Origin: Candidatus Poribacteria bacterium
Lineage (GTDB): Bacteria > Poribacteria > WGA-4E > WGA-3G
NCBI GenBank assembly: GCA_003635195.1
Contig: PYIY01000075.1
Coordinates: 27,608 to 91,607, forward strand
Length of the DNA stretch: 64,000 bases
Direction: 5' to 3'
The position numbers were made by a program, and so were the translations under genes. Under the pieces are notes generated by a model. It ran no database searches and was not told where the DNA came from. It saw only the letters and a program-made list of their open reading frames with translations. Positions within the stretch are counted from its first letter, which is position 1. Each line of letters starts with the position of its first letter. Positions 5,611 through 61,661 of this stretch are shown one piece after another.

Positions 5611-8600
5611 TTAAAGTTCCGCGCTGATTGTCATCTCTAAGCGGTGTTCAGGTTTGCGCTGCTTTGTGGAGAGCAGCCGGTAATTGAGGCGAAACAGTAG
5701 GTCTGTGAATTTTCGTAGCCTATAATCTGCTGTTGTGCGTACTTCGTGACTAATGCCCTCATAAAAAGTGTATTGCGCGAAGGGGATGCCACCGCTACTT
5801 TGACCGTAGCCGAGTTTATAGTTGAAAACGATGCGTCCTTTACCGATAAGCCTGTATGTGATTCGGTTTTCATAAGAGAAGGTGCGCGTTCTGGCTTCAG
5901 GTTCCTCGTCAAGTTGTTCCTCGTCGGTTGTCCGTTTATAGCCGCCAATACCGCTCCACTCCAGTGAGTTGTTCAGATCATATCGGAGGTTCAGTTCAGT
6001 TATCTGTTCAAGTTGACGGAGGTCTGATATAGGTGTAGCGGGAGGATCTCCCATCTTTTCGGTAGGATCGGTTCCCTGCGCGAGGTCCTCAAAATTGAAT
6101 TGGCTATACTTTTCATTTTCTCGACGTTGCTCCCAATTTGCTCTGACAGATAGGCGTTTCGTAGGGTTCACGGAGAAACTGACATCCCAGGTGTTGTGTT
6201 GTCTGTGGCGTTCTTGGTTATTAATTCGCTTGTTGAGCGTCTCTCCCATCCGGAAGTTAATTTCAAAACTGAATGCCGTTGAGGGGACAAATTCGAGTTG
6301 ATGATGTTGGTTCACCCGCCCAAAAAGTGTATCTGGCCCCTGTAGATTTTGGAGTAGATATAGAGAAACAGCGTCCTCTACCTCTTGTTCCTCTGTTAGC
6401 CAAAGTCGTGTTCGTCCTCTGAGTGCACTCAAAAACCACTCTAAACGGCTGTCAGCCATTGGCTCTCGGCTATCAGTAACAGGAGGTTTCTGGTTAACAG
6501 AAAACCCTCTTTGCTGATTGCTGACTGCTGACTGCTGATTGCTATCTTGCTGACTGCTGACTACTGAGGATTGACTGCTATTTCGTGTTGGACGCAAACT
6601 GTCGGGTTTCAGCATTGACTCACGTTGCTGCTGTTGCCGCGCTCTTGCACGCCGTGCGAAGTACTGACGCGGTTGAAAACGGATACGGAATTCCGCATCT
6701 ACCGCTGTTGTTGGCTTATCACCGACATTTTGGTAGATTTTGATGTAGGTGCCTTCCTCGGGATCTTCTACATAGTGCAGATCGTCCAATTTCACGTAAT
6801 AGCCTTCGCCAGGTTGAAGGAGAAGTCCGGTGTGTGGATGAATGTTGGTATAGATTTCGTGGCGTTGGCTTGTCAATTTTTTATCTAACTCGTAGGTGAG
6901 TTCTATGTCAATTGCCCGACTGAGTGGTGTCAATTGAAGGTTGATATCGGCGAGTTGCGTCGTCGTATCTGCGCCGATATCCGTGTGTGCCTTCAGCATT
7001 CGGCGAGCAAGGTTCGCACTCAGATTCACGCCGCCGCTGAGAAAAGATTTGTGTTGTGAAAAGAGACCGACTTTCCATGTTCGCGCTGTAGTGCTTCGCT
7101 GCCAATCGGATAGACCGATGGGTTGGTTGTCCACAGTGAGCAACGGCTCTTTCGCATAAGCCTCCTCAAGTTCGTAGCTGGTATTGACGGAGACCCAACT
7201 GAAATCAACGAGATTAATACGTCCAATCGCACGGTTCCGCTTTCGGTTGAGTGTCGCATTGCGTGCCTCGTTTGATTCCAATCTACCCAAAGTCCCAATA
7301 ATTCTGAACGGTCCGATCGGATAGGACAGGTTGCCCTCCTGTCGCGACTTTTGCTGCGATTCTGTCTGTGTTGAATCTTCACTCTCGACCCGTGAACTGC
7401 TCCGATAATCATCCCAACGGAAATTCGGCAACTTCCTTAGGAGCTGCGCGCCTTTAGAGGATGCCTTTTCTGACGCTATAGCTTCCTTCGGTCGTCCCGT
7501 TGTAAACCTGCTTTCTCGTGTGCGGGTAGCGATTACATTTCCACTGCCTGAACGCTGATTGAAGTTTACGCCCCAGTTGAAATTATCACGGATCGTTGCG
7601 TTGGTAGGAGTGGTTCTTTCAAATTGTTGGAAACCATCTGGTGAATCAGATCCTTCTGACTGACTGTTCTCACTGCGAAGCAGGCGTGCCGGCTGACGGC
7701 TGTTTTCCTCGCTCCTACCGACTCCGGCATTAACCGCGAACCAATCCGTCGGTATCACTCGGATGTCAAAGTTTGCGGTTCTTTCATCTCGGGCAATTTG
7801 TGAGTGTCGTGCAGTATCAAAGAGAAACGCATCATCAAAACCCTCTTTGGCGTATTGCGTTTCATAACGGGAACGGGAACGGTTACCACTTGATGCGCCG
7901 ACAGGTAGAAAATCGGCATCCATTGCGCGTATGTCAAAGTTTGTGTTCAATTTAGGTCGGAATTTCTCTGTCCATGTAGCGAAGTCCCAGTCCGCATAGC
8001 CGATCAGTTTCCACGCCTGACTCACCTCTTTACGGTCTACGGTGGAATAGGTGTTTTTATCAAGATTGCTGTAGGCGAGTTCACCTTCAATCCACGCTTT
8101 TTCGGTGATATTCACGCGACTTTCTACACCCCATACTGTATGTTTTTGCGGTGCCGTGAGGAGTGATCTGCCGTCTTCTTCAGGATCAAGGAGATTTTGA
8201 CGCAGTGCCTCCAGATCCGCGTCGCTGAGTTGGATTAAAGCCTGTTCAGGTTGGTTCAGGTCCGCCTCAACGGCATAAGAGGCACCGAGACTTATCCAGT
8301 CTCCGGGTAGTGTGAAGACGCTGCTGAGTCCGTAAAGATTCTGTTGATAGGCCCGTTCTTCAGGGATATATTCAAAGTCAATCCGAATTGTGTCGTTGCT
8401 TGTTATCAGGTGTTTGCTGTTGAATTCGACGATCGGATCCCCATATTCTCGGATGACGTAATCGTTGTTCTCACCGCGCCGCATCCGCTCGCCATTCAAC
8501 CAGACGATTTCACTCCCTGCTTTCACGATGACGTATTGCCCATCAACCGTAATCCGGTATTCGCTCCGTCCTTCTTCTCCACGAAGGACTAAACTTGTAG

Positions 8601-9486
8601 ACTGTCCTTTCGGGATAGCACTCGGAATGAGGTGAAATTTCGCCCACTTGAAATCGCCTTCGACTTGTACGCCTTCGAGCGCACGTGGGAAAAAGATAAA
8701 TTCCGAGGCACCGAGTGATCCCTCAAAGTCGCCTAATGTGCCTCTCATGTTCGGATGCGTGATACGAACCAATTTCTGATCAATGTCTTGGATATTCTCG
8801 GTTGTGCCTTCGGGTTGAATTGGTAAATCTTGGTCGGACAGCAGTGCAAGGACACTGATATTCTCGGAGACTTTACCCTCTACATTGACCCGGAGTTCCT
8901 GGTTCAGTGTCACGCCGCGCCCGCTGCCGACTGAGATACCGGATGTTTGACTTCCGGACACTTCTAATTGGCTATCGGGAGAATAGTTGTCAGTTGTCAG
9001 TTGTCGGTTGTCAGTTAAAAATCGGTTTGTCTCATCAGACTTCTCTTTCACTGATGACTCCTGCGCTGATGGAAACCGAAGGCTATCGGGGTTTTGCTCA
9101 CCGTAAAGGTCGCGTTTATAGACCTCTTTTATTGCGAAAGGCAGCGTGCGATAGGTTATCTTTAATCTATAGGGATCGGTAATGGAATCTTGCTTTACTA
9201 TAGTAATCTTTCCCGGATAGAAATCAATTTGATAGTCCACATTTCGGACAAGGGTTTTTCCGTTCGCCGCTACCAACTGTTCACTGTCAGGGAGAATCGG
9301 CGGGTACTTTACTGTAAATTCCAGTTCACTATCTTTCAGTTCAAAGGATTCTGTTTTCTGGAGAACGGAAAAGGTGGGAAGTTTGAGGACTTTAGTCTTG
9401 TCGTCAGCGGATTCTTGTGCCGGACTTTCGGGACAAGGTAGCAGGCACAAACAGAAGGAAACGAAAAAAAAGAGTCGGATAGGCAT
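5611..9486 (-). CDS. Very large secreted, outer-membrane beta-barrel-like protein (1291 aa), family unknown
   Basis: Signal peptide MPIRLFFFVSFCLCLLPCPESPAQ. The C-terminal two thirds are long, aromatic-rich and have an alternating pattern. Two low-complexity segments are encoded by family A repeat DNA. Confidence 0.6.
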   Translation of the reverse strand: MPIRLFFFVSFCLCLLPCPESPAQESADDKTKVLKLPTFSVLQKTESFELKDSELEFTVKYPPILPDSEQLVAANGKTLVRNVDYQIDFYPGKITIVKQDSITDPYRLKITYRTLPFAIKEVYKRDLYGEQNPDSLRFPSAQESSVKEKSDETNRFLTDNRQLTTDNYSPDSQLEVSGSQTSGISVGSGRGVTLNQELRVNVEGKVSENISVLALLSDQDLPIQPEGTTENIQDIDQKLVRITHPNMRGTLGDFEGSLGASEFIFFPRALEGVQVEGDFKWAKFHLIPSAIPKGQSTSLVLRGEEGRSEYRITVDGQYVIVKAGSEIVWLNGERMRRGENNDYVIREYGDPIVEFNSKHLITSNDTIRIDFEYIPEERAYQQNLYGLSSVFTLPGDWISLGASYAVEADLNQPEQALIQLSDADLEALRQNLLDPEEDGRSLLTAPQKHTVWGVESRVNITEKAWIEGELAYSNLDKNTYSTVDRKEVSQAWKLIGYADWDFATWTEKFRPKLNTNFDIRAMDADFLPVGASSGNRSRSRYETQYAKEGFDDAFLFDTARHSQIARDERTANFDIRVIPTDWFAVNAGVGRSEENSRQPARLLRSENSQSEGSDSPDGFQQFERTTPTNATIRDNFNWGVNFNQRSGSGNVIATRTRESRFTTGRPKEAIASEKASSKGAQLLRKLPNFRWDDYRSSSRVESEDSTQTESQQKSRQEGNLSYPIGPFRIIGTLGRLESNEARNATLNRKRNRAIGRINLVDFSWVSVNTSYELEEAYAKEPLLTVDNQPIGLSDWQRSTTARTWKVGLFSQHKSFLSGGVNLSANLARRMLKAHTDIGADTTTQLADINLQLTPLSRAIDIELTYELDKKLTSQRHEIYTNIHPHTGLLLQPGEGYYVKLDDLHYVEDPEEGTYIKIYQNVGDKPTTAVDAEFRIRFQPRQYFARRARARQQQQRESMLKPDSLRPTRNSSQSSVVSSQQDSNQQSAVSNQQRGFSVNQKPPVTDSREPMADSRLEWFLSALRGRTRLWLTEEQEVEDAVSLYLLQNLQGPDTLFGRVNQHHQLEFVPSTAFSFEINFRMGETLNKRINNQERHRQHNTWDVSFSVNPTKRLSVRANWEQRRENEKYSQFNFEDLAQGTDPTEKMGDPPATPISDLRQLEQITELNLRYDLNNSLEWSGIGGYKRTTDEEQLDEEPEARTRTFSYENRITYRLIGKGRIVFNYKLGYGQSSGGIPFAQYTFYEGISHEVRTTADYRLRKFTDLLFRLNYRLLSTKQRKPEHRLEMTISAEL
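6492..6583. repeat. Family A element, half copy (A1), inside the 1291-aa CDS
   Basis: aaaaccctcttt is followed by the 7-nt units gctgatt gctgact gctgact gctgatt gctat. This parallels aaacctcttt aactgat aactgat aactgat aactattt at 16317-16353. Confidence 0.65.
8983..9025. repeat. Family A arm (A2) inside the 1291-aa CDS
   Basis: The sequence atagttgtcagttgtcagttgtcggttgtcagttaaaaatcgg is the same arm seen at 22315 and 58652. Confidence 0.7.
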
Positions 9487-15694: not shown

Positions 15695-15827
15695 TAGTTT
15701 TTAGTTATCGGTTGTTGGTTATCAGTTAAGAGGATGATCTGATTCATCAAGTCTTTCTGTTAACTGAAAGCTGAAAGATTTTTCATGCCTCGCAGTGAGA
15801 GAAAATCGGACTGAAAACTGATAACTA
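15695..15827. repeat. Family A element(s) (A5)
   Basis: Pattern tagtttttagttatcggttgttggttatcagttaagagg...ctgttaactgaaagctgaaag, followed by tttttcatgcctcgcagtgagagaaaatcggactgaaaactgataacta. Confidence 0.8.
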
Positions 15828-15833
15828 TTAAAC

Positions 15834-16208: not shown

Positions 16209-16350
16209 TAGTTGTCAGTTTGCCTTGCAGTGAGAGTCGTCAGTGGTCAGTTAAGAGAGGTCTTGGGGTGTCAAGCTCTCTGGTGGCATCTATAAGTTGA
16301 TGGAATACTACAGCAAACCTCTTTAACTGATAACTGATAACTGATAACTA
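16209..16350. repeat. Family A element (A6), full copy
   Basis: The left arm is tagttgtcagtt, followed by the box tgccttgcagtgagag. The inner stem is cagttaagagaggtctt...aaacctctttaactg, and the right arm is aactgataactgataactgataacta. Confidence 0.85.
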
Positions 16351-16351
16351 T

Positions 16352-17047: not shown

Positions 17048-17076
17048 GTTTGAAGCTCCTTCTCTATGATCAAGAA

Positions 17077-17164
17077 GTTACCAGTAACCAGTGGCCAGTT
17101 ACCAGAAAGAGACTTTGGAACTATCCAAAACCTCTGAAAACTGGAAACTGGAAACTGGAAACTG
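17077..17164. repeat. Family A element (A7)
   Basis: The left arm is gttaccagtaaccagtggccagttaccag. The core is aaagagactttggaactatccaaaacctct, and the right arm is gaaaactggaaactggaaactggaaactg. Confidence 0.8.
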
Positions 17165-20907: not shown

Positions 20908-21024
20908 ATAGTCGTCAGCCATCAGCTGTCAGCAAAGACGCAAGCTTTACAGAACACCTCTTTTCTTTACTGATAGCCGAAAGGTTTTTCGCAGAAAAAC
21001 CGCCCTGACAACCGACTGCTATTT
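20908..21024. repeat. Family A element (A8, AAAGACGCAAGC subtype)
   Basis: Pattern atagtcgtcagccatcagctgtcagc aaagacgcaagctttacagaac..ccgaaaggtttttcgcagaaaaaccgccctgacaaccgactgctattt. It is collinear with 9503-9632. Confidence 0.8.
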
Positions 21025-21621: not shown

Positions 21622-22314
21622 TCATGTATCAACGCGGTGCACCACAACATAACTTCGATTGAATTTTGGGTTTGTGAAAACGGTTTCAATGTTTCCACCC
21701 AGCGCCCTGAGGTGCGTCGCGCTGTCGTCAATTTCGGTATCTATTATTTCCGGTCCAAGTTTGTAAGCCACCCATCTTCCGGTCGGTTTCAGGAACGGCA
21801 GACAGTACACAGCAGAGTCTCGAATAGTTGCGACGTAACGGGTGAAAACCCAATCATAAGCACCAACACGATCGGGGTCTCGCGCACAAACCTCCGCACG
21901 TTCGGTAAGTACTTCAACGTCTACCTTTTGATAGACGTTCACCTTTTGGTGAAGGTTTAGTTGCGGGATTAGAAATTTTAGGAAACTCCCTTTCTTTTTT
22001 GATGCTTCAACGAGCGTTAATCGAATGTCAGGCACGTAAATTTTTAATACAATTCCTGGGAATCCGGCACCTGTCCCGATGTCAATCACGGTGTCCCCTT
22101 TTTTAAGTGTTATATGTTCCAAAACACTTAACGCATCAAGAAAATGCTTATGAACAATTTCATTGTTATCTGTGATTGCGGTCAGGTTCATACGCGCATT
22201 CCACCGAAGCAGTTCAGCACGATACTTGTCAAACTGTTCGGCTTGATACGTGCTTAATGGAAATCCATGTCGCTTGAACGTCTCTTTTAAGACGTGCGTA
22301 TCCTGTGCCAACAT
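21622..22314 (-). CDS. rsmG: 16S rRNA (guanine527-N7)-methyltransferase
   Basis: It has the SAM motif DIGTGAGFPGIVLK, an RsmG-like N-terminus, and lies downstream of mnmG. Confidence 0.9.
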   Translation of the reverse strand: MLAQDTHVLKETFKRHGFPLSTYQAEQFDKYRAELLRWNARMNLTAITDNNEIVHKHFLDALSVLEHITLKKGDTVIDIGTGAGFPGIVLKIYVPDIRLTLVEASKKKGSFLKFLIPQLNLHQKVNVYQKVDVEVLTERAEVCARDPDRVGAYDWVFTRYVATIRDSAVYCLPFLKPTGRWVAYKLGPEIIDTEIDDSATHLRALGGNIETVFTNPKFNRSYVVVHRVDT

Positions 22315-22414
22315 TAGTTGTCAGTTATCAGTTGTCAGTTTGCCTTGCAGTGAGAGTTAAGAGACCTCTTGTGGCAGGTAAATATGTTGTTACTGCCACA
22401 GCAGACTTCTTAAC
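22315..22414. repeat. Family A element (A9)
   Basis: Pattern tagttgtcagttatcagttgtcagtt tgccttgcagtgagag ttaagagacctctt gtggcag..ctgccac ..cttcttaac. It starts 1 nt after the rsmG start codon. Confidence 0.85.
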
Positions 22415-25378: not shown

Positions 25379-26011
25379 TTAAGCTTTCCGCCTGCCTTCA
25401 AGTGCTTTCGCAAGGGTTACTTCGTCAATGTACTCCAAATCCCCACCCACTGGGATACCGTAAGCGATACGCGTAACAGCGACTTCAAACGTTTCGAGAT
25501 GTTGTGTAAGATAGAGGGCGGTTGCTTGTCCTTCTGTTGTCCAATTCGTTGCAAGAATTACTTCTTGCACCGGTTCAGCGTTTACGGCGGAATCCTTGAT
25601 ACGTTGAAAGAGTGTATTAATTCCGAGTTCATCAGGTCCGGTTCCGTCTAACGGTGAGAGTACGCCGCCAAGTACATGATATAACCCTTTATACCCGTTA
25701 GTTCTTTCAATAGCCCAAAGGTCATCCGACTCTTCAACGACACAAATTATCCGTGGGTCTCGGCGTGGATTGGTACAGATATAACACGGATTTGTATCGG
25801 TAATCGTGCCACAAACATCGCAGTAGCAGAGTTGTTGTTTTACCTGTGCGATGGCTTCCGCGATTTGGGCGGTTTCAGTGTCAGGTAACTTTAGCATAAA
25901 AAACGCTAAACGTTGCGCTGTTTTCTGACCAATCGTCGGTAACTTTTGGAGTTCAGTGATAAGCTTCGCCAGCGGTTTCGGGTACTCTTGCATGGATTCT
26001 TTGTGCGGCAA
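25379..26011 (-). CDS. recR: Recombination protein RecR
   Basis: It has the zinc finger CYCDVCGTITDTNPCYIC and a Toprim segment, with a TTG start. Its stop abuts the next gene's start (TAAATG). Confidence 0.95.
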   Translation of the reverse strand: MPHKESMQEYPKPLAKLITELQKLPTIGQKTAQRLAFFMLKLPDTETAQIAEAIAQVKQQLCYCDVCGTITDTNPCYICTNPRRDPRIICVVEESDDLWAIERTNGYKGLYHVLGGVLSPLDGTGPDELGINTLFQRIKDSAVNAEPVQEVILATNWTTEGQATALYLTQHLETFEVAVTRIAYGIPVGGDLEYIDEVTLAKALEGRRKA

Positions 26012-26013
26012 GA

Positions 26014-26110
26014 GCCATCAGTCATCAGCCATCAGTCATCAGTAAAAGAGGTATTTGGTTATGCGAAAACCTGTTTGCTGATGGTCTCCGACGGCTGACA
26101 GCCGACAGCC
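26014..26110. repeat. Family A-like element (A11)
   Basis: Pattern gccatcagtcatcagccatcagtcatcagt aaaagaggtatttgg...aaaacctgtttgctgatgg..gctgacagccgacagcc. Confidence 0.65.
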
Positions 26111-28407: not shown

Positions 28408-28676
28408 GGCTATGCACCCAGAGTTGACAAGCTTCTCCAGGCGTTGCCCGCGCCGTTAGCTCAGGTCAGGCACCCTTGCGTCACACGAACAACTCATCTA
28501 CCGCTGCTTCCTTCCGGACCTGACGGGGTTCAACAAGCATTCGTTGCTCAAGACCCAACCCTCAACACTACGTACGTGGGACAGGCCCCACAGAAACAGG
28601 CCGCATCCTGGGGATTCAGTCCTGCTATAGCGGATTGCAGATACAGGGCACCGCTACCTCCCCACTTAGCATAGCC
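28408..28676 (-). ncRNA. ffs: Signal recognition particle RNA, long (Alu-domain-containing, Bacillus-type) form
   Basis: The minus strand reads GUCAGGUCCGGAAGGAAGCAGC (28503-28524), which is the conserved domain IV motif. The 5-prime part GGUAGCGGUGCCCUGUAUCUGCAAUCCGCUAUAGCAGG resembles the B. subtilis scRNA Alu domain. The terminal helix pairs GGCUAUGC with GCAUAGCC. It lies upstream of dnaX, as in the Bacillus-type arrangement. Confidence 0.85.
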
Positions 28677-28697
28677 AAGGTATTAGATATAAGAAAC

Positions 28698-28789
28698 TGG
28701 CGGAGAGAGTGGGATTCGAACCCACGGTACTGCAAAACAGCACACATGATTTCCAGTCATGCCAGTTCAACCAACTCCTGCATCTCTCC
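28698..28789 (-). tRNA. tRNA-Ser(GGA), CCA encoded
   Basis: The acceptor stem is GGAGAGA/UCUCUCC. The anticodon loop is CUGGAAA between CAUGA/UCAUG. It has a long variable arm and the T loop GGUUCGAAUCC. Confidence 0.9.
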
Positions 28790-28795
28790 GTTTTA

Positions 28796-28920
28796 TAGTT
28801 GTCAGTTAGAGGAAGTTAACAGTTGTCAGTACGATTTTTTCTGCAAAAAAAATCTTTCAGTTCTCAGTTAAGAGACTTTGGAACTATCGAAAACCTCTTG
28901 TAACTGATAACTGTTAACTA
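28796..28920. repeat. Family A element (A12) between two tRNA genes
   Basis: Pattern tagttgtcagtt..cagttgtcagt..ttttttctgcaaaaaaaatctttcagttctcagttaagagactttggaactatcgaaaacctcttgtaactgataactgttaacta. Confidence 0.8.
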
Positions 28921-28927
28921 TCATGTA

Positions 28928-29000
28928 TGGAGCAGACGGGATTTGAACCCGTGACCTCATCCGTGCGAGGGATGCACTCTCCCAACTGAGCTACTGCCCC
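28928..29000 (-). tRNA. tRNA-Ala(CGC)
   Basis: It starts GGGGCAGUAGCUCAG and has G3:U70. The anticodon loop is CUCGCAC, and no CCA is encoded. Confidence 0.9.
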
Positions 29001-29088
29001 AGAGTTTATAAAATTTATCGGGTTTACAAAACCCTCCTACAGCATCTTGCGATGACTGATTATCGTTCACCTTGAAAATATCAAAAAA

Positions 29089-29173
29089 CGGAGAGAGTGG
29101 GATTCGAACCCACGGTGACTTGCGCCACAACAGTTTTCGAGACTGTCCAGTTCAACCACTCCTGCATCTCTCC
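29089..29173 (-). tRNA. tRNA-Ser(CGA)
   Basis: The acceptor stem is GGAGAGA, the anticodon loop is CUCGAAA, and it has a long variable arm. Confidence 0.9.
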
Positions 29174-29251
29174 TTATGATGCGTCATAACGATAGCGTCG
29201 TATACCAGAGCCATTCAATTTGAAGTCGCGATTCGGAGATCGCTCCTACTT

Positions 29252-29710
29252 TTACAGTTTATGGCGGCGTCCCTGAAAAAAGGATTTGAGCAGCGCACTG
29301 CTCTCATCTGCTAACACACCACTTACCAATTCAACCCGATGGTTTAGCCGTTCATCTTGGAGAATATTATAGAGTGTGCCGGCTGCCCCAGATTTCGGGT
29401 CTGCCGTGCCGTAAACCACCTTCGGGATGCGTGCTAAGACGATAGCCCCTGCACACATTGGGCACGGTTCTAACGTCACATAAAGCGTTGTGTCTGTAAA
29501 TCGCCAGTTCCCAATTTTTTCGGATGCCGCTTGTATAACAAGCATTTCTGCATGAGCGATAGGGCTACCAGACTGTTCACGCAGGTTGGAGGCTTCCGCG
29601 ATGCGGACCTCGTTGCTAACGAGTACTGCCCCAACGGGTACTTCACCGTTCTCGGCGGCTTGCTTCGCTAGCTCAAGTGCGTGTCGCATCCAGAAAAGAT
29701 CGCTATCCAA
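29252..29710 (-). CDS. tadA: tRNA adenosine(34) deaminase
   Basis: It has the deaminase motifs HAEMLVI and LEPCPMCAGAI. The TTG at 29710 or the ATG at 29689 could be the start. Confidence 0.9.
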   Translation of the reverse strand: MDSDLFWMRHALELAKQAAENGEVPVGAVLVSNEVRIAEASNLREQSGSPIAHAEMLVIQAASEKIGNWRFTDTTLYVTLEPCPMCAGAIVLARIPKVVYGTADPKSGAAGTLYNILQDERLNHRVELVSGVLADESSALLKSFFQGRRHKL

Positions 29711-29735
29711 GTTATGTCCAACAAATGGCTTATGA

Positions 29736-29809
29736 AGCGCCTGAGAGGATTCGAACCCCTGGCCTTCTGATCCGTAGTCAGATGCTCTAATCCACTGAGC
29801 TACAGGCGC
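29736..29809 (-). tRNA. tRNA-Arg(ACG)
   Basis: It starts GCGCCUGUAGCUCAGUGGAUUAGAGC and the anticodon loop is CUACGGA. It ends 26 nt upstream of the tadA ORF. The 3-prime boundary is accurate to about 1 nt. Confidence 0.85.
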
Positions 29810-29885
29810 GTATTGTACGGTATTGAAGCGTTAGGCAGCTACGCCTTGCCTATACGTTTTTGTGTCTGATTTGTTGCTTTAAAGA

Positions 29886-29970
29886 CGGAGAGGGTGGGAT
29901 TCGAACCCACGATGGCTTGCGCCATAACTGCTTAGCAGGCAGTCCAGTTCAACCACTCCTGCACCTCTCC
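29886..29970 (-). tRNA. tRNA-Ser(GCU)
   Basis: The acceptor stem is GGAGAGG, the anticodon loop is CUGCUAA, and it has a long variable arm. Confidence 0.9.
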
Positions 29971-29974
29971 ATAA

Positions 29975-30062
29975 TGGCGGTGGGAGTAGGATTCGAACCC
30001 ACGATGGCTTGCGCCATAACGGTTTTCAAGACCGCCGCTTTCGTCCACTCAGCCATCCCACC
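29975..30062 (-). tRNA. tRNA-Ser(UGA), CCA encoded
   Basis: The acceptor stem is GGUGGGA/UCCCACC and the anticodon loop is CUUGAAA. The variable arm and T arm are almost identical to those of Ser(GCU). It lies 4 nt from the neighbouring tRNA. Confidence 0.85.
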
Positions 30063-43167: not shown

Positions 43168-43274
43168 CACAGGCTAACGGTTTCCTATGCTACAAGTGAT
43201 ACTTTGCCTAGACTAACGGTCTCCTATGCTACAAGTGATACTTTGCACAGGCTAACGGTTTCCTATGCTACAGG
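43168..43274. repeat. 39-bp direct tandem repeat, 2.7 units
   Basis: Units start at 43168, 43207 and 43246. The unit is cacaggctaacggtttcctatgctacaagtgatactttg with a few substitutions. It lies about 185 nt upstream of the oxidoreductase gene. Confidence 0.85.
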
Positions 43275-53764: not shown

Positions 53765-55447
53765 CTATAAGGAAATCGTTTCTGGTGGGTTGTCGCGTGT
53801 AATGAGGAGGCGTCGCTGCCATTCGGTATCATCCTGTGCCGGAAAATCGGCGCGATAGTGTGCACCGCGACTCTCTGTCCGAACAAGAGCAGATTGTGTT
53901 ATCATCAAAGCGACGTTGAGCATATTAACTGTTTCAATCGTTGCGACATCTGCGACTTCTGGACGCGTTAGCACGTTCCCTAAACTTTCCATTAAGTCTT
54001 GCAATTCGGCGAAGGTTTCTTGTAAACCTTCGCCGTTTCGTTCGATGCTAACGTTCTCCCAGAGTGCCTCTCGAATGACCTTTTTGATCGGTTCTATAGA
54101 ATAGTTTTCGGTTTTCAGTTTTCGGTTTTCAGTTAAAGCGTCTCTCGTGGCAGTCCCAGACCCCTCTTGTAACTGACTACTGATAACCGATGGCTGATAA
54201 CTCTTTGCGAATGTTGCAGCATTTGTGCCAGCGCGGGCCCCATAGACGAGGCATTCAAGCAGCGAGTTGCTTGCTAAACGATTCGCCCCGTGGACCCCTG
54301 TACATGCCACTTCTCCACAAGCATAAAGCCCTTTGAGGTTGGTTTGTGTATCTGTATTTGTGCGGATGCCGCCCATCATGAAGTGTGCGCCAGGACGGAC
54401 GGGGATTAAGTCCACGTTAATATTGAGACCATAGTGTTTTGTGGTCTCGGAGATGGTCGGAAATCGTTCAAGGATGAAGTCTTCGGATTTATGGGTAATA
54501 TCGAGGAAAACGCAGGGGAATTCGGTCAAGTCCATCTCGTTTTGAATCGCACGGCTCACGACATCCCGTGGGGCAAGTTCACCTTTCTCGTGGTATTTCT
54601 CCATAAAGCGTTCACCACGAATGCTCAAAAGTTTGCCGCCTTCGCCTCTAACGGCTTCTGAGATCAAGAAATTAGGTGCCCCATCCAAGAAGAGCGTTGT
54701 TGGGTGGAACTGGACGAATTCCATATCTATCATTTCGCATCCGGCGCGCCAGGCCGCAGCGAATCCGTCGCCGGTTGCTACTTTTGGATTAGAAGTACAT
54801 GGGTAAATCCGCCCAAGCCCGCCGGTCGCGAGAATTGTGGCTTTGGCGCGAAGACAGACGACTTGTTCCTCTACAATTGCCGTGACCCCGTAGCATGTGG
54901 GCGTATTTTCTCTTTCCAAATTGACATCCGCGTCAGTCAGTAAATCAATGGCGAAAGTGTTTTGCAGGACGTGAATCCGTTCCGTATTTAGCACGCGCTG
55001 GATAAGGACATCTGTCGTTTCACGCCCTGTTGCGTCCCCTTTGTGTACAATTCGACGGCGGCTGTGGGCAGCTTCTCGTGTAAAGCGGGGCAGCGTTCCT
55101 TCCCAATCAAAGTTCGCGCCCCAGTCTAACAGTTCTGCAACGCGTGGAATGCCTTCAGATACCATCATCTCAACCGCTTCCACATTACAAAGACCGGCAC
55201 CCGCGACACAGGTATCCTTTATGTGCAAGGCAATTGTGTCATCAAGGTTCATAGCAACAGCGATTCCACCTTGGGCGTAGTGGGTATTGCTCTCTGTCAA
55301 TGTAGTTTTGGTAATTAAGGTTACATCGGCGTGTTCACTCGCAGCGAGGGCAGCGCGCAACCCAGCAGCACCACTCCCGATAATGAGGACATCGGTGTCC
55401 CAAGTGAAATGCCGTTCTGGATTCATCGCAGATATTGGATTTTCCAT
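53765..55447 (-). CDS. nadB: L-aspartate oxidase carrying an in-frame repeat-derived insertion
   Basis: It has the FAD motif DVLIIGSGAAGLRAAL, the motifs HYAQGGIA and RGEGG, and a C-terminal ESRGAHYR. Confidence 0.9.
   Translation of the reverse strand: MENPISAMNPERHFTWDTDVLIIGSGAAGLRAALAASEHADVTLITKTTLTESNTHYAQGGIAVAMNLDDTIALHIKDTCVAGAGLCNVEAVEMMVSEGIPRVAELLDWGANFDWEGTLPRFTREAAHSRRRIVHKGDATGRETTDVLIQRVLNTERIHVLQNTFAIDLLTDADVNLERENTPTCYGVTAIVEEQVVCLRAKATILATGGLGRIYPCTSNPKVATGDGFAAAWRAGCEMIDMEFVQFHPTTLFLDGAPNFLISEAVRGEGGKLLSIRGERFMEKYHEKGELAPRDVVSRAIQNEMDLTEFPCVFLDITHKSEDFILERFPTISETTKHYGLNINVDLIPVRPGAHFMMGGIRTNTDTQTNLKGLYACGEVACTGVHGANRLASNSLLECLVYGARAGTNAATFAKSYQPSVISSQLQEGSGTATRDALTENRKLKTENYSIEPIKKVIREALWENVSIERNGEGLQETFAELQDLMESLGNVLTRPEVADVATIETVNMLNVALMITQSALVRTESRGAHYRADFPAQDDTEWQRRLLITRDNPPETISL
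54102..54202. repeat. Family A element (A13), complete copy inside the nadB CDS
   Basis: Pattern tagttttcggttttcagttttcggttttcagtt aaagcgtctctcgtggcagtcccagacccctctt gtaactgactactgataaccgatggctgataact. Confidence 0.8.
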
Positions 55448-55556
55448 GTTTTTAAGTTACCTTGCGGTGGGTCAAGGGCTTTGATGTATCCAAAGTTTGT
55501 GTACAAATGCCGTCCCTCCATTTCATTACGGGCTTTTATCAGAATTCCCAGAAAGT

Positions 55557-55997
55557 TCAGAACTGCGCTGGCACTTTCGGCGCGAAGTTCTCACCGACCG
55601 GGACGACTTTACCTGTACCCGTAGCAATGAGGGTGCCATCACTGAGCGTAACCTCTGCCTTTGCTTCCACTAACCTTTTGGAAACCTTAATACGCTCTGC
55701 GGAGACATGAAGTTTCACAGCGGTTGGTGCAGGATTACGAAAGCGGACTTCAAGCTGTGCTGTTACTGCGGGCTGATCAAAAGTGCTTATTCCGACGTAG
55801 GTAATCGCTTCATCTAACAGGGTACTGAGGATGCCACCGTGTAGAATGTTTGCCCAACCTTGCAAGTGTTCGGCGGGTGTGCATTCAATGCGAACGGATG
55901 CCCCATTACCTATAATTTCAGGTTTTACCTGAAAACCGAATGGGTTTTTCATACCGCAAACAAAGCAGTTATCATTGTTTTCAATCGCCATTTTCAC
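55557..55997 (-). CDS. PaaI-family hotdog-fold thioesterase
   Basis: It has HGGILSTLLDEA and an N-terminal CFVCG motif. Its start overlaps the valS stop by 17 nt. Confidence 0.8.
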   Translation of the reverse strand: MKMAIENNDNCFVCGMKNPFGFQVKPEIIGNGASVRIECTPAEHLQGWANILHGGILSTLLDEAITYVGISTFDQPAVTAQLEVRFRNPAPTAVKLHVSAERIKVSKRLVEAKAEVTLSDGTLIATGTGKVVPVGENFAPKVPAQF

Positions 55998-58647
55998 TTC
56001 CTGATTCGGTAAGCATTGCGAGACTCCGTGCCAATTTTTCCTGCTCTATGAGCAGCCGTTGAAGCTGTGCCCGCTTTTGGGCAACGACGTTTTCTGGGGC
56101 ACGCTCGACGAAGTTCGGGTTATCCAATGTCTTTTGTGCTGCTGCTACATCCTTCACTGCCTGTTGATGTCGTTTGCTAAGCCTTGCCTGTTCCGCTTCC
56201 AGATCAATTACATCAGCAAGTGGGATATAAATGGCAAGTTCCCCAATAACCGCTTCAGCTGAAGCAGGTGGTTTCTGCAGAGATTCAGCGATAGTGATGT
56301 CAGCTACCCGTGTGAAAGCCGGTAAGTACTGTGATAGATACGTTTCGAGTCGCTCGCGCACCGCACTGTTTGGCGATTGGATATGGACTTCGACAGACGC
56401 GCCAATCGGGACGTTCAACTCACCTCGGATGCTGCGAATACTCTCAATGACTTCCGTGAGCGTTGCCATCGTGGTTTCTGCAGTTGAATTTTCACCTGTT
56501 GGCTCCGGCCAAGGGGCGATTGTTACTGAATTATCGCTCTGAGTTCTATTGCGTGGGAGTTGTTGCCAAATTTCCTCGGTTAAGAAGGGCATAAGCGGGT
56601 GGAGGAGCCGCATTGTCTGTTCCAAAATGTCTGCAGCGACCCAGAGTGCCGCGGGTTCATCTTGCGCAATTCGTTGTTTAGTGAATTCGAGATACCAATC
56701 ACAGAATTCATGCCAAAGGAAAGCATAAAGTGTTTGTGCCGCTTCGTAGAAACGAAAGTTTTCGAGGGCTTCGGTTGTTGTTTTAATGGTATGGCTGAGG
56801 CGACTCCGTATCCACGTTATTTCAAGCGTTTCCTGTTCGGTATCCACAACATCCATCTCGGCGGGAATCGGGTGTTTTTCTAAATTCATGAGGATGAACC
56901 GAGCAGCATTCCAAATTTTATTGGCGAAGCGTCTGCCTGACTCAATTTGCGATTCCAGGAGTGTGACATAAGGGTTTGGCATGCTTGCATTTACGAGCGC
57001 GAAGCGGAATGCATCTGTCCCGTAAGTGTTAATTGTCTCTACTGGGTCGATGGTGTTTCCTTTCGATTTGCTCATTTTTTGTCCCTTTTCATCGGCGACA
57101 AGTCCGTGCAAATAGACGGTTCGGAATGGCACCTTATCCATACATCCGAGTCCTAACATTATCATTCTTGATACCCAGAAGAAGAGTATGTCCCAACCCG
57201 ACACAAGAACAGAGGTCGGATAAAAAGTTTTCAGTTCTTCGGTTTCTTCTGGCCAGCCCATAGTGGAGAAGGGCCACAACCCTGAACTGAACCATGTGTC
57301 AAGGACATCTTCGTCTTGACGGAAATCCGAGGCACCACACTCGCATCGCTGTGGCGTTTCCATTGCAGCGGTAACTGCGTCGCATGCGTTGCAGTACCAT
57401 ATCGGGAGTTGATGCCCCCACCAACGTTGCCGTGAGATGGGCCAAGGTTCGATAATCTCCATCCAGTGGTAGAAACGATCTGTTTCGCGTTCGGGAATGA
57501 ACCGGACTTCGCCTTTTTGGGTCGCTTCTATGGCGCGTTGCGCGAGGGGTCGGACATTCATGAACCATTGCAATGAGATAGCAGGCTCAACAATCGTATC
57601 ACATCGGTCATGATGCCCAACAGCGTGCCGATGGGGTACAATCTTGACGAGGTAATCCAAGTTCTTCAAATCTTCCACGACCCGTTTGCGACACTCCCAT
57701 CGGGATAAACCGACATATTTTTTGGGTGCCGCTTCGCTGATATGCGCGTCTTGTGTGAAGATCGTCCGTTGTTCGAGGTCGTGCCGCGAACCGATTTCAT
57801 AATCGTTAGGATCGTGTGCGGGTGTTACTTTCAAGGCCCCGGTGCCAAATTCTCTATCCACGTAAGGGTCGGCGATTATCGGGATTTCCCTGTCACAGAG
57901 CGGTAGATGTGCTGTTTTTCCGATGACGTGTTGATAGCGTTCGTCGTCGGGATGCACAGCAACAGCCGTGTCGCCTAACATTGTCTCTGGGCGCGTCGTG
58001 GCGATTTCAAGGACGATATCACTGTCTTTCACAGGATAGCGAATGTGGTAAAAGTTGCCGTCTACCTCAACCGGTTCCACTTCAAGGTTACTGATAGCAG
58101 TGTTACATTCTGGACACCAATTGACCATGTAGGTGTCGCGATAGATGAGTCCCTGATTATAGAGTTTGACGAATGCGGTGCGAACGGCTTTCGAGAGTCC
58201 TTCATCGAGTGTAAAACGCTCACGTTCCCAATCACAAGAGCATCCGAGCTGTTGAAGTTGTGAGACGATATAGCCAGCAGATTCTGCTTTCCATTGCCAC
58301 ATCCGCTCGGTGAATTTTTCCCTACCGAGTTCAGTGCGACTCGTCCCTTCCTCGGCGAGTTTTCGCTCCATGATGAGTTCGGTAACAATACCGGCGTGAT
58401 CGGTCCCAGGCATCCAGAGCGCGTTATACCCTTGCATGCGCCGCCATCGGATGAGACAATCTTGGAGTGTATTATCAAGGGCGTGTCCGATGTGGAGACT
58501 ACCTGTGATATTCGGTGGCGGAATCACAATGGCATAAGGCGATTTGTCGGAAGTTGCCGCCGCGTGGAAGTAGTCATTTTTTTCCCAAAATTGATACCAT
58601 TTCCCCTCAATTTCTTGAGGGGCATAGATTTTTGGAAGATTCGTCAT
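55981..58647 (-). CDS. valS: Valine-tRNA ligase
   Basis: The HIGH motif is PPPNITGSLHIGHAL and the KMSKS motif is KMSKSKGN. It has a C-terminal coiled coil. Confidence 0.95.
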   Translation of the reverse strand: MTNLPKIYAPQEIEGKWYQFWEKNDYFHAAATSDKSPYAIVIPPPNITGSLHIGHALDNTLQDCLIRWRRMQGYNALWMPGTDHAGIVTELIMERKLAEEGTSRTELGREKFTERMWQWKAESAGYIVSQLQQLGCSCDWERERFTLDEGLSKAVRTAFVKLYNQGLIYRDTYMVNWCPECNTAISNLEVEPVEVDGNFYHIRYPVKDSDIVLEIATTRPETMLGDTAVAVHPDDERYQHVIGKTAHLPLCDREIPIIADPYVDREFGTGALKVTPAHDPNDYEIGSRHDLEQRTIFTQDAHISEAAPKKYVGLSRWECRKRVVEDLKNLDYLVKIVPHRHAVGHHDRCDTIVEPAISLQWFMNVRPLAQRAIEATQKGEVRFIPERETDRFYHWMEIIEPWPISRQRWWGHQLPIWYCNACDAVTAAMETPQRCECGASDFRQDEDVLDTWFSSGLWPFSTMGWPEETEELKTFYPTSVLVSGWDILFFWVSRMIMLGLGCMDKVPFRTVYLHGLVADEKGQKMSKSKGNTIDPVETINTYGTDAFRFALVNASMPNPYVTLLESQIESGRRFANKIWNAARFILMNLEKHPIPAEMDVVDTEQETLEITWIRSRLSHTIKTTTEALENFRFYEAAQTLYAFLWHEFCDWYLEFTKQRIAQDEPAALWVAADILEQTMRLLHPLMPFLTEEIWQQLPRNRTQSDNSVTIAPWPEPTGENSTAETTMATLTEVIESIRSIRGELNVPIGASVEVHIQSPNSAVRERLETYLSQYLPAFTRVADITIAESLQKPPASAEAVIGELAIYIPLADVIDLEAEQARLSKRHQQAVKDVAAAQKTLDNPNFVERAPENVVAQKRAQLQRLLIEQEKLARSLAMLTESGSENGD

Positions 58648-58651
58648 TTTT

Positions 58652-58736
58652 TAGTTGTCAGTTATCAGTTGTCAGTTATCGGTTAAGAGATTTTCGTTTA
58701 AGCACAGTTTCCTCTTGTAACTGATAATTGATAACC
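58652..58736. repeat. Family A element (A14)
   Basis: Pattern tagttgtcagttatcagttgtcagttatcggttaagagattttcg..tttcctcttgtaactgataattgataacc. It starts 5 nt after the valS start codon. Confidence 0.85.
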
Positions 58737-58744
58737 ATTCCTCA

Positions 58745-58914
58745 TAGTTGTTAGTTGCCCGTTTTGACCAAGAACTCGCGCCTTAGCAAAAGTATCTGTA
58801 GACGAGTTGTTGGTCAAGGTTAAGAGTGGTCTGTAACAATTGATTGATGCCCTGAAATATTCCACGTGGGCGGAGATCGTTACAAAGAGACCTCTTAACT
58901 GAAAACTGATAGCT
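58745..58914. repeat. Family A element (A15), longer variant
   Basis: Pattern tagttgttagttgccc...gttgttggtcaaggttaagagtggtc...aaagagacctcttaactgaaaactgatagct. It ends at the hpf stop codon. Confidence 0.7.
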
Positions 58915-58915
58915 C

Positions 58916-59473
58916 TTAGGCAAAGAGAGGCTCTACCCACCCGTAGGTCCCCTGCTCCATTTCATAAAGTAAATTGACTTGCCGGGTTTCCGCGTTTAAA
59001 AACAGCAGAAATACGGTATTTGAAGCTTGAAGTTCCGTTGCGGCTTCCGCGACTGTCAGCGGTTTCGATGCGAATTTCTCTTGTGCTGCTACGATGACAG
59101 GTGCATCAGTACCATCAAGTTCGATTGCGGTTTCCACGTCGTCCGGGTTGAGTTGTGCGACGACTTCGCGATGTGGCGCATTATGCCGTCGGTCTTTGAC
59201 TCTGTCCTTGTAACGACGGATCTGACTGATAATCTTATCTGTTACAGCGTCTAATGCGGACAGAATCTCATACGTTTCACTTTTCGCATAAAACGACACG
59301 CGTGGTGCTGTCACTATCATCTCCGCGTCAAATCGATGTTTCTCGGATTTGAGGACGACGTTGAGTTCCTGCATATCTCCGAAACGGGTTTCAATTTTGT
59401 CAGCACGTTTTAGGATGTATGCATGAATATCATCCGTAATTTTTAGGTTATGTCCGGAATACGTTACTTTCAT
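58916..59473 (-). CDS. hpf: Ribosome hibernation promoting factor, long form
   Basis: It has an S30AE N-domain (MKVTYSGHNLKITDDI) plus a C-terminal dimerisation domain (VFLLFLNAETRQVNLLYE). It lies downstream of rpoN. Confidence 0.9.
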   Translation of the reverse strand: MKVTYSGHNLKITDDIHAYILKRADKIETRFGDMQELNVVLKSEKHRFDAEMIVTAPRVSFYAKSETYEILSALDAVTDKIISQIRRYKDRVKDRRHNAPHREVVAQLNPDDVETAIELDGTDAPVIVAAQEKFASKPLTVAEAATELQASNTVFLLFLNAETRQVNLLYEMEQGTYGWVEPLFA

Positions 59474-59789: not shown

Positions 59790-61661
59790 TCAACCAGCGC
59801 GATTCCCTGCATGGACAGCGGATCTTTCACGTGATGTCGGAATACCTAATTCGTCCCGATATTTCTGAACAGTTCGCCTCGCTAATAGGATACCTTTTGT
59901 TTTTAAGGCATTACTGATGGCTTGATCACTCAGCGGTTTTTTCGGTGTCTCAGCATCGACCATCTCTTGAATAAGGTTTTTCACTTGCTTGGCAGAAATT
60001 GCTTCGCCTTGCGTTGTTGCCAATTCATTACTAAAGAAAAACCGTAGCGGATACATGCCGTGTGGCGTTTGCACGTATTTATTGCTTGTCACTCGACTGA
60101 CGGTTGATTCGTGGACCCCTATTCTTTCAGCGATTGTTCTGAGTGTTAAAGGTTTGATACTTTTAGTGCCTTCTGTCAGAAATTCTGTTTGTACCTCAAA
60201 AATCGCCTCGGTGACTCGGGCGATTGTGCTACCGCGCTGGGCAAGGCTGCTGAGCAAATTCGATGCATCGCGATAGCGTTTTTCTATCCATTCTTTTGCC
60301 TCAGTATCAAGTGTGTCTTGCCGATTCCGCATTAGATTGAGATAGTAAGGATTCATCTGTAAACGGGGGATATAACTGTCTACAGAAATAGCCTGATACT
60401 TGCCGTTGAGGTACTGTATCTCTACATCTGGGGTAACGGTATCCACATGAGAATTTTTTTTCAGCGATCGCGTCATTGGATCGGTGAAGTAGCGACCTGG
60501 ATAAGGCGACAGTCTTCGTATCCACTTGACGACTGTATCAATAACTAAGATGTCAACTTTTAATGCCTCTGCGATGCAGTGCCATTGCTGATTGAGAAAA
60601 GCGTCGTAGTAGTTTTCGATAATCTCTTGTGCGAAAGATTGTACAGGCGTTTTTTTATTTCCGAAACCTTCACACTGCCACGGTTCACCGTTCAGACTTT
60701 CCGCGACTACCTGTATCTCTTCTGGTTTCTGATTGCGGATCTGGATGAGCAACGCCTCCCTTGTATCTCGGTGTGCGATGCCTATGGGTTCAAAGTTGTC
60801 TTGTATCTCGCGAAGCACTGTTTCAACGAGTGTTGTTTCACATCCAACGGTTTCGGCGATATCTTCCAACGTGAGTTGATAGAAATTCAGAGCGGGTTTG
60901 CGATTTCCCAATGTACGTTCATATATGATGGTATAAGTCCTGTTGTTGTCTGGATCGTTAACTTGCCATGTACAGTTTATAGGTGCCCCCTCGTTTTCGG
61001 CGGGCGTATGTGTTGTCTTTTTCCGTGAAATTGTAGCGTTTTTTGAGAATTTAACATTACTATTACCGATTGCGGCTTGTAACCCTTTTTGAATAATCGT
61101 GTGTAATTCTGCTGAGATCTCCCCTAAATTCAATGCGGTTAAACATTCGCACGGCATTTGAAACAGTTTGAGTTCCAGTTTTCCATCGTCGTTGAGATTC
61201 CCGAGAATATACTCTGCAATAGCGCGTTCCGTCTCTGTACTGATAATGTCGGCAAAAGCGAGGTCGAGCTGCTCAACAAGATGATCGTGCAGGGAACACT
61301 CGTATATGACATCCGGGGGAGGTTCATCAGGATCTGCGTGTTTGGTACTCATTCGGTCGCTGAGTGACACGCGGTCTTCAAAAGCCATATCCCAATCAAT
61401 ATCAACAGCCGTATCTTCCTGATCAAGATTACCTTCAGGTTCGTTCCATTCCAATGCGGGGTCTAATTCTTCAAGGGTGGGTCCGAGTTCATCAGCATCG
61501 TCTTCAAGTTCAAGAAATGGATTCTGCTCAAGTTCCTGACGAATGAAATGTGTTAGCTCTTGCAGCGGCATATTCAGCACTTTAAGTGCTTGCTGTAATC
61601 TGGGCGTGATAGACGTTTTTTGCGTCAGCTGAGGGGTCTGGGTAAGTTGCGCTTTATACAT
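59790..61661 (-). CDS. rpoN: RNA polymerase sigma-54 factor, unusually long (623 aa)
   Basis: Region I is ITPRLQQALKVLNMP. The HTH is HESTVSRVTSNKYV and the RpoN box is ARRTVQKYRDELGI. Confidence 0.9.
   Translation of the reverse strand: MYKAQLTQTPQLTQKTSITPRLQQALKVLNMPLQELTHFIRQELEQNPFLELEDDADELGPTLEELDPALEWNEPEGNLDQEDTAVDIDWDMAFEDRVSLSDRMSTKHADPDEPPPDVIYECSLHDHLVEQLDLAFADIISTETERAIAEYILGNLNDDGKLELKLFQMPCECLTALNLGEISAELHTIIQKGLQAAIGNSNVKFSKNATISRKKTTHTPAENEGAPINCTWQVNDPDNNRTYTIIYERTLGNRKPALNFYQLTLEDIAETVGCETTLVETVLREIQDNFEPIGIAHRDTREALLIQIRNQKPEEIQVVAESLNGEPWQCEGFGNKKTPVQSFAQEIIENYYDAFLNQQWHCIAEALKVDILVIDTVVKWIRRLSPYPGRYFTDPMTRSLKKNSHVDTVTPDVEIQYLNGKYQAISVDSYIPRLQMNPYYLNLMRNRQDTLDTEAKEWIEKRYRDASNLLSSLAQRGSTIARVTEAIFEVQTEFLTEGTKSIKPLTLRTIAERIGVHESTVSRVTSNKYVQTPHGMYPLRFFFSNELATTQGEAISAKQVKNLIQEMVDAETPKKPLSDQAISNALKTKGILLARRTVQKYRDELGIPTSRERSAVHAGNRAG

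Follow-up and report, generated by a model that had tools for sequence, protein, structure and literature searches.

An in-frame heptamer-armed palindromic repeat in the L-aspartate oxidase gene nadB of Candidatus Poribacteria

The Rickettsia palindromic elements (RPEs) are palindromic repeats that lie in frame in unrelated functional housekeeping genes (Ogata et al. 2000, Science 290:347, and 2002, Genome Res 12:808, summarized in PMC10969869), and RPE-1 copies are reported to lie mostly within open reading frames (ORFs). Occasional in-frame copies are also known for ERIC, BOX, QMITE1 and the Anabaena MITE (miniature inverted-repeat transposable element; PMC10969869). A second relevant family consists of direct repeats of the heptamer TAACTGA in marine Beggiatoaceae, Cyanobacteria and some Bacteroidetes (MacGregor 2015, PMC4679880). 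Forward TAACTGA arrays lie just upstream of start codons and are closed in all frames (LITDN*), the reverse arrays read LSVISYQ, and occasional copies within ORFs are found at protein peripheries (PMC4679880). Here we describe a palindromic element with tandem-heptamer arms that lies in frame within nadB, the essential NAD-synthesis gene for L-aspartate oxidase, in a 64-kb window of Candidatus Poribacteria DNA (the window being the whole stretch that was analysed). The segment belongs to a repeat family specific to one Poribacteria clade, and its translation now probably provides the linker between two domains of a functional NadB. It was compared with 80 species-level Poribacteria nadB loci (L001-L080), which together with the window amount to 1.7 Mb of DNA, and with the 120 closest NadB protein clusters.

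The nadB gene (53765..55447, minus strand) is intact and encodes 560 aa. The protein aligns over its full length with NadB of E. coli (structures 1CHU and 1KNR; E=4e-115), is 100% identical to the NCBI entry 'L-aspartate oxidase [Candidatus Poribacteria bacterium]', which comes from a metagenome-assembled genome, and carries the Pfam domains FAD_binding_2 and Succ_DH_flav_C in precomputed annotation. Outside the element the ratio of nonsynonymous to synonymous substitution rates (dN/dS) is 0.04-0.09 (about 0.05), indicating strong purifying selection, and NadB with the element is predicted to be a functional enzyme. The element occupies 54100..54206 (minus strand) and encodes residues K415-Y449, its boundaries having been set by DNA alignment with alleles that carry the ancestral linker described below. 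A preliminary description of this DNA had reported a complete palindromic family copy in frame within nadB, and the arms, core and termini are indeed all present, with one open frame. The location given there, 54102-54202, was right but slightly too narrow by comparison with relatives. It had also placed the segment between the FAD part and the C-terminal helical domain, which agrees with the alignment to 1CHU. Together with what we take to be the domain boundaries of E. coli NadB, that alignment puts the element at the predicted junction of the two domains. An AlphaFold2 model from an alignment of 68 close orthologues had a mean predicted local distance difference test score (pLDDT) of 45 and a predicted template modelling score (pTM) of 0.41 and was not used for loop placement; since the model is poor throughout, no specific conclusion follows from its low confidence at residues 419-449.

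The element is 107 nt long, with a terminal inverted repeat of ~10 bp and plus-strand termini AATAG...CTCTT. Read in gene direction its ends are AAAGAGTTATC...GAAAACTATT in the window and AAATAGTTATC...GATAACTATT in relatives. The nadB copy carries the family termini AAATAG...CTATT(T), with one change in the window (AAAGAG), and identical termini are found at the copies in a 1291-aa hypothetical protein encoded elsewhere in the window. Within the termini there are three parts, all on the minus strand. The 'forward' heptamer arm (54103..54134; period 7 and 4.6 copies in tandem repeat finder) is (AGTTTTC/GGTTTTC) x4.6 on the plus strand, reads ACT GAA AAC CGA AAA CTG AAA ACC GAA AAC in the mRNA and encodes LTENRKLKTEN. 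The core or loop (54135..54169) retains inner-stem remnants, AGTTAAAGCG...CCTCTTGTAACT, and encodes about QEGSGTATRDA. The 'reverse' arm (54170..54202), delimited by its repeats and by codon alignment, reads AGTTATC AGCCATC GGTTATC AGTAGTC in gene direction, ends ...CCTCTTGTAACTGACTACTGATAACCGATGGCTGATAACT at 54202 on the plus strand and encodes SYQPSVISSQL. The inverted repeats span 23 nt and are 78% complementary. The entire peptide, K415-Y449, is KSYQPSVISSQLQEGSGTATRDALTENRKLKTENY; it combines SYQ.SVIS.Q from the reverse arm, related to the LSVISYQ of reverse TAACTGA repeats (PMC4679880), with LTDNRKLKTDNY from the forward arm. Only one of the six frames is open through the element, and this is the frame of nadB itself.

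Membership of the repeat family is indicated at several levels. The inner-stem consensus is AGTTAAGAG...CCTCTTGTAACT; the left junction in the window copy, AGTTAAAGCG, departs from it by one mismatch, and the junction is intact in the nadB copies of L047, L008, L010 and L011. A 14-mer at the junction of core and arm, CCTCTTGTAACTGA, recurs exactly in the copies at 28894 and 58711. The arm pattern AGTTNTCRGTTNTCRGTT, with up to 2 mismatches allowed, occurs 28 times in the window, five of them in the nadB element, where 0.20 occurrences are expected from shuffled sequence. Element-type linkers contain 0.056 heptamer motifs per nt, 20-30x the 0.002-0.003 found for the remaining nadB sequence and for ancestral linkers. 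The NadB linker varies in length and sequence across all taxa, so that an ordinary lineage-specific linker might in principle resemble the repeats by coincidence, and a segment of this kind could also be an assembly chimera. Both are extremely improbable given the motif density and the excess of arm matches over expectation, the shared junction 14-mer, and the joint presence of both arms, inner stem and termini. The segment is also present in dozens of independent assemblies; it is carried by 43 of the 120 clusters and by eight species-level genomes, including the long complete chromosomes OZ241378.1, OX638352.1 and OZ220722.1, and it is therefore not a chimera. E. coli NadB, from an unrelated phylum, has no homologous segment at the site but its own unrelated linker of ~26 residues.

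What the element does to the protein differs from a simple insertion. The NadB linkers compared are of two kinds, either the element (34-35 aa) or an ancestral linker of the form SQP.HPPDIP...SNVGTS... (28-30 aa), and never both. The element type is found in the 43 clusters mentioned and in eight of the 80 species-level loci, the window being the ninth carrier. The ancestral linker is found in the other 77 clusters, can be aligned phylum-wide and tracks the species tree. DNA alignment places the element where ~90 nt of ancestral linker would otherwise stand, and all carriers share the boundaries TTTGC/AAATAG...AACTAT/TCTATAGAA (slashes mark the element ends). The preliminary description had envisaged a clean insertion of about 34 extra residues, with an empty site to be looked for in related genomes. 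Ordinary NadB sequence does flank the element on either side, but an unrelated ancestral linker has been replaced. Since that linker holds 28-30 residues at the same position, the net gain is ~5 residues, and no relative has an empty site, every other Poribacteria NadB having the ancestral linker. We rejected the idea that the ancestral linker is itself an older, decayed element: its heptamer density is at background and its hairpin z-score is near 0. The dN/dS ratio is ~0.3-1.3 in the element and ~0.3 in the ancestral linker, so that constraint on the peptide is relaxed, and the site is a spacer with no constraint on its sequence.

A forward heptamer array would normally close the reading frame. 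The canonical (TAACTGA)n arm in the register of nadB reads ACT GAT AAC TGA TAA, with stops at codons 4 and 5. At these two stop-prone codons, codon alignment shows that all nadB carriers read CGA (CAA in L008) and AAA. The in-frame copy of the 1291-aa protein in the window reads ACT GAC AAC CGA CAA, in the same frame as nadB, and in L083 (like L084, a locus from another species) the arms of the copy are nearly identical to those of nadB and again in the same frame. We infer from these codons that an ORF-compatible subfamily of the repeat, rather than repair after insertion, may account for the open frame. One nadB allele, P0024, is shorter by exactly 21 nt, or three heptamers; this single case suggests that slippage goes on and that only in-frame steps survive.

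In-frame copies are not confined to nadB. The 1291-aa hypothetical protein (5611-9486, minus strand) has no Pfam domain and is found at 72-100% identity in >120 Poribacteria clusters; it is hypervariable at approximately aa 131-168 and 963-1003, both regions being made of in-frame heptamer elements. The first copy (8984..9095, minus strand) covers residues ~131-168 (...NRFLTDNRQLTTDNYSPD), and the second (6480..6600, minus strand) has AGCAGTC-type heptamers and reads NSSQSSVVSSQQDSNQQSAVSNQQRG. At this second site the window has an AGCAGTC-type element, L083 an AGTTATC-type relative of the nadB element (GRQPSVISGQLRDG...SLTDNRKLVTVNY) and L084 a short remnant, and every version begins after CCAACAC(C/G). 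A 623-aa sigma-54-like protein (59790-61661, minus strand) has a variable linker after the motif IQDNFEPxGIAxRD...LLIQIRN, and in L016 (4933-4961) and L017 (4783-4811) this linker contains an in-frame AGCAGTC-type array with the peptide AVSSQQSAVS. Given the copies that the 1291-aa protein (both sites) and the sigma-54-like protein contain, the RPE-like behaviour that the preliminary description had proposed is real and recurrent, and it always falls in variable linkers. The peptide recurrences listed there also hold, as LTDNRQLTTDNYS in the 1291-aa ORF and as LTDNQQPITKNY in an ORF extension at 15695-15750; the latter is a spurious N-terminal extension and probably untranslated, because its position is upstream of what is probably the true start (METSIS...).

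The repeat family to which the nadB copy belongs is a ~90-110-nt hairpin with a reverse AGTTNTC array, a core and a forward GANAACT (TAACTGA-like) array. The core is flanked by a short inner stem, GTTACAAGAGG...CTCTTAAC, which encloses a variable loop, and the termini are AAATAG...CTATT. There are ~12 heptamer arrays in the window and 95 in the 1.7 Mb. They are restricted to one large Poribacteria clade, and the deeper lineages among the 80 nadB loci are without them. Approximately one fifth lie within a long open frame, mostly as orthologous nadB copies. In 23 of 95 cases a forward array ends at most 30 nt upstream of an ORF start (ORFs of at least 100 aa), as against one of 95 for the same arrays in the control orientation, on the opposite strand. 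Folding is strong in the intergenic copies (RNA fold z-scores of -3.5 to -6.4); for the nadB copy the score is -2.1 in the window and -3.5 to -5.1 in L002, L047 (-5.1) and L008 (-4.3).

The resemblance to RPEs is one of behaviour. Both are dispersed palindromes of ~100-150 nt whose peptides lie at fold-compatible sites and which reuse one frame across host genes. Unlike RPEs, the Poribacteria element belongs to another phylum and has no known sequence relationship to them, its arms are tandem heptamer arrays, its copies are mostly intergenic and often abut start codons, its nadB copy removed host residues by replacing the linker, and the allele is patchily shared between species. We therefore treat it as RPE-like in its working and not as an RPE member, the organism being a poribacterium and Rfam giving no match to the elements, either across the whole window at gathering thresholds or in 53900-59000 with E up to 10. 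The likeness to the TAACTGA repeats extends to an identical or near-identical heptamer, arrays of 2-6 units and forward arrays beside start codons. However, PMC4679880 describes direct arrays and one inverted pair, whereas the Poribacteria arrays are inverted around a conserved core; the repeats in that paper have no predicted secondary structure, whereas the Poribacteria arrays form long hairpins (z-scores of -4 to -6.4). PMC4679880 does not list Poribacteria among its taxa, nor does it include an open, translated forward array in an essential enzyme. We found no paper tying Poribacteria to MITE-like repeats, and the family appears to be undescribed, its closest known counterpart being the repeats of the TAACTGA heptamer in Beggiatoaceae and cyanobacteria.

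There are likewise points in common with MITEs and with REP, REPIN and BIME sequences (Correia, ERIC, Nezha, REPINs; PMC10969869, PMC3116915): small size, terminal inverted repeats, many copies, no transposase coding, hairpin formation, a mostly intergenic position between co-directional genes and occasional in-frame copies. Like MITEs, the element shows presence/absence and tandem-duplication polymorphism at orthologous sites, namely the spacer upstream of valS and the nadB linker. Its tandem-heptamer arms, which expand and contract by slippage, are not typical of these families, and no cognate IS or RAYT gene was identified, no search aimed at one having been made. Its ends are palindromic into the flanks (AA/TAG...CTA/TT), so that no target-site duplication can be defined, and the filled and unfilled sites that were compared either differ by replacement or have diverged too far for alignment. 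Tandem heptamers are likewise dispersed in the cyanobacterial short tandemly repeated repetitive (STRR) sequences (CCCCAGT, TTGGTCA, CAACAGT), which Mazel et al. reportedly described in 1990 as mainly non-coding tandem arrays, but these have different sequences and are without inverted pairs and core.

The distribution of the nadB element is patchy. In a NadB tree computed with the linker removed, and in a ValS tree, the carriers are polyphyletic, falling into at least four lineages in two clades: the window with L001-L003, L047 among non-carriers, L008 with L010 and L011, and L012 beside a non-carrier clade. Clade-diagnostic sites show that the flanks of carriers follow their own clade up to ~50 nt from the element on its left side and up to 5-23 nt from it on its right. 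In L047 and L012 the flanks match those of non-carrier relatives, and informative sites are of the element type only in or near the element, the tract extending from about -100 to +78 in L012 and the left switch in L047 falling within 13 nt. Between the clades, synonymous divergence (dS) is 0.14-0.42 in the element and 1.2-1.6 in the rest of the gene, i.e., 3-9x lower, while the dS of the ancestral linker tracks or exceeds that of the gene. Searching the 1.7 Mb with the full element by blastn gave full-length matches in nadB orthologues only. A metagenome scan with the nadB core GCYACRAGRGRCNCTTTAACTGA returned one chance match, in a glutaminyl-tRNA synthetase gene on an unrelated contig, and is uninformative on further core copies.

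Identical boundaries and a core private to nadB argue for a single origin, and a single origin combined with a patchy distribution calls either for the spread of a very short cassette or for a long-standing polymorphism under constraint. The element allele is old and shared patchily by several species, and not a private recent event. We put the chances at about even that one allele arose once and afterwards reached, as a short cassette, four or more lineages belonging to two clades, most likely through homologous recombination of short tracts between Poribacteria that occur together. Alternatively, several lineages could have received independent insertions into the nadB linker, through a hotspot or targeted integration. 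Polyphyly with own-clade flanks right up to the element would fit such a history, as would the turnover of subfamilies at one boundary in site 2 of the 1291-aa protein (window, L083 and L084) and the one to three elements gathered by the valS-upstream spacer in different species. Independent insertions would, however, be expected to add length, to vary in position and to bring different cores, and the nadB copies all replace the same ~90 nt and share a core found nowhere else in the 1.7 Mb, so that we regard repeated insertion as improbable.

The low synonymous divergence of the element admits another explanation, namely that the nucleic acid sequence or the hairpin itself is functional within nadB, as a protein-binding site or as an mRNA structure that slows translation between the domains or stabilizes the transcript, and that similarity between the clades reflects purifying selection on nucleotides. 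With dS 3-9x below that of the gene and dN/dS near 0.5, both kinds of site have been slowed relative to neutral expectation; the nine carriers differ hardly at all in the forward arm CTTTAACTGATAACCGAAAACTGAAAACCGATAAC, the copies of L047 and L008 still fold well (z -5.1 and -4.3), a non-coding copy upstream of valS is conserved, loop included, despite synonymous saturation, and forward arms abut starts (23/95 as against 1/95) as reported for TAACTGA repeats in PMC4679880. Other observations point the other way. Maintenance of the hairpin by compensatory change was tested in the nadB copies and is unsupported, the RNAalifold covariation term being +0.65 with one compensatory pair and most substitutions breaking pairs. 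The window copy folds weakly (z = -2.1), 77 of the 120 clusters manage without the element, and constraint alone cannot account for a polyphyletic distribution. There is also no start codon after the forward arm in nadB, and internal restart, which would give a separately translated C-terminal domain, was rejected because none occurs within ~85 nt downstream of that arm. We consider a functional sequence or hairpin in nadB unlikely.

The best-supported interpretation remains that the element is a protein-coding palindrome of the RPE-like kind, either tolerated or exapted, which would serve as a passive spacer. A repeat copy would have come to occupy the variable linker between the FAD-binding and C-terminal domains in one lineage, and the ancestral linker of ~30 residues would have been lost, either by insertion followed by deletion or through a recombinational patch. 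Tolerance may have depended on an unconstrained spacer, on the ORF-compatible variant (CGA, AAA) and on slippage in 21-nt steps. The present peptide would have no catalytic role and would act as a flexible spacer, with the hairpin probably decaying in this genome.

Several points weigh against this interpretation or parts of it. Among the 120 clusters and 80 loci there is no allele that combines the two linkers and none that lacks both. A recent transfer between the clades with hitch-hiking flanks was sought and not found, there being no excess of flank similarity at 60-nt resolution and no such signal at informative sites, and it would be unusual for several independent recombination events all to end within tens of nucleotides of the element. 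The low dS could instead mean constraint or homogenization at the nucleotide level, which would weaken the recombination step and hint at a function other than that of a passive linker. Across the same clades the valS-upstream copy, too, is 80-98% identical, which makes conservation or homogenization a property of the family and may explain low dS without recent transfer. The description of the element as mobile is drawn from copy number and presence/absence polymorphism, and the surface-loop location from the alignment with E. coli NadB and the presumed domain boundaries.

It is also conceivable, albeit speculative and rather doubtful, that an ORF-compatible subfamily of a conserved regulatory hairpin (with TAACTGA-type heptamer arrays) has become an exchangeable linker cassette. 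Such a cassette would overwrite unconstrained linkers of essential proteins and move between species as a unit of ~105 nt that takes hardly any flanking DNA along, driven by biased gene conversion initiated at the hairpin or by selection on the element. Its in-frame copies would be actively maintained, functioning at the RNA or DNA level within coding regions, and would not be passive relics.

The intergenic copy upstream of valS (58652..58738, minus strand) lies between the stop codon of the upstream gene and valS. It has a fold z-score of -4.0 for the strand that is transcribed and of -5.9 for the opposite strand, and its forward arm ends 5 nt before the valS ATG; there is no obvious Shine-Dalgarno sequence. 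An orthologous copy (at about 6600-6790) is present in L001, L003, L004, L006, L008, L010, L011, L013, L019, L030, L033 and L047, and is 80-98% identical across the clades, loop included, despite saturated synonymous sites. Across species the spacer holds no element, one, two or half an element, and up to three: there is a tandem duplicate in L001, L003, L047 and L019, L014 and L050 retain just the forward arm, and L016, L018, L037 and L020 have no copy. The valS-upstream copy has the appearance of a functional leader element. A longer conserved element, GGTTTTCAGTTAAGAGGTTTCTTTGTAACGATCTCCGCC...CAATTGTTACAGACCACTCTTAACC, lies upstream of the valS-proximal copy (window ~58740-58915, minus strand) and is also found in L006, L008, L010, L013, L030, L033 and L036; nested within it in the window and in L015 is an extra hairpin, TTGACCAACAACTCG...CGAGTTCTTGGTCAA.

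Further intergenic copies in the window are on the minus strand. The copy at 22315..22410 has its forward arm against the ATG of the ORF 21622-22314, and that at 26013..26110, with AGCCATC/AGTCATC heptamers (z -4.6), abuts the start of the ORF 25379-26011. A strong hairpin with AGTTACC-type heptamers (z -6.4) lies at 17073..17164. The short copy at 28852..28921 is beside a tRNA gene and shares CCTCTTGTAACTGA with the nadB copy; it belongs to a region (28410-30062, minus strand) that contains the signal recognition particle (SRP) RNA gene (28410-28674) and six tRNA genes, with heptamer arrays interspersed (28814-28921), and three of these tRNAs are 85-93 nt each and 73-85% mutually identical. 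On the plus strand, a solo array, (TAACTGA)x3.7 and 100% perfect, lies just 3' of a stop codon (16324..16351); other arms use one-base variants of TAACTGA, namely CAACTGA, AAACTGA and AAACCGA. The minus-strand copy at 15695..15830, the source of the spurious ORF extension, has a second repeat type nested in one arm. This second dispersed repeat, with core GAAAGGTTTTTCATGCCTCGCAGTGAGAGAAAACCGCCCTGA and flanked by AGCNGTC-type heptamers, occurs at 9556-9631, 15754-15829 (the nested case) and 20965-21024, and pieces of it, CTCGCAGTGAGAG, are found inside the valS-upstream elements of L011, L029 and L033. Unrelated tandem repeats with a 39-nt period are present at 43168-43272 (2.7 copies, 87%) and 823-902 (2.1 copies, 85%), a period that would keep the frame if coding. 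A 605-aa ORF (2952-4769, plus strand) has at least five WD40-like repeats spaced ~126 nt apart, eukaryote-like and typical of sponge symbionts.

In-frame palindromic repeats, RPEs among them, and TAACTGA repeats are already known. What is new is the phylum, the inverted-heptamer hairpin, the open and translated forward array in an essential enzyme, the replacement of a linker, and the patchy, cassette-like distribution. A second, unrelated RPE-like case, in extracellular sponge symbionts with genomes of ~6 Mb, would generalize the idea that repeats seed or overwrite protein linkers. Through the family, the poorly understood TAACTGA repeats known from Beggiatoaceae and cyanobacteria are linked to a further phylum and to an architecture of hairpins, and its strongly conserved, start-abutting copy upstream of valS offers a concrete site at which to ask whether such repeats have a role in translation. 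Repeats of this kind lengthen ORFs artificially, as at 15695-15750, and may mislead gene calling and alignment-based phylogeny. The sharp-edged and patchy element-type nadB allele provides a route to the study of short-tract recombination and gene conversion in uncultivated symbionts.

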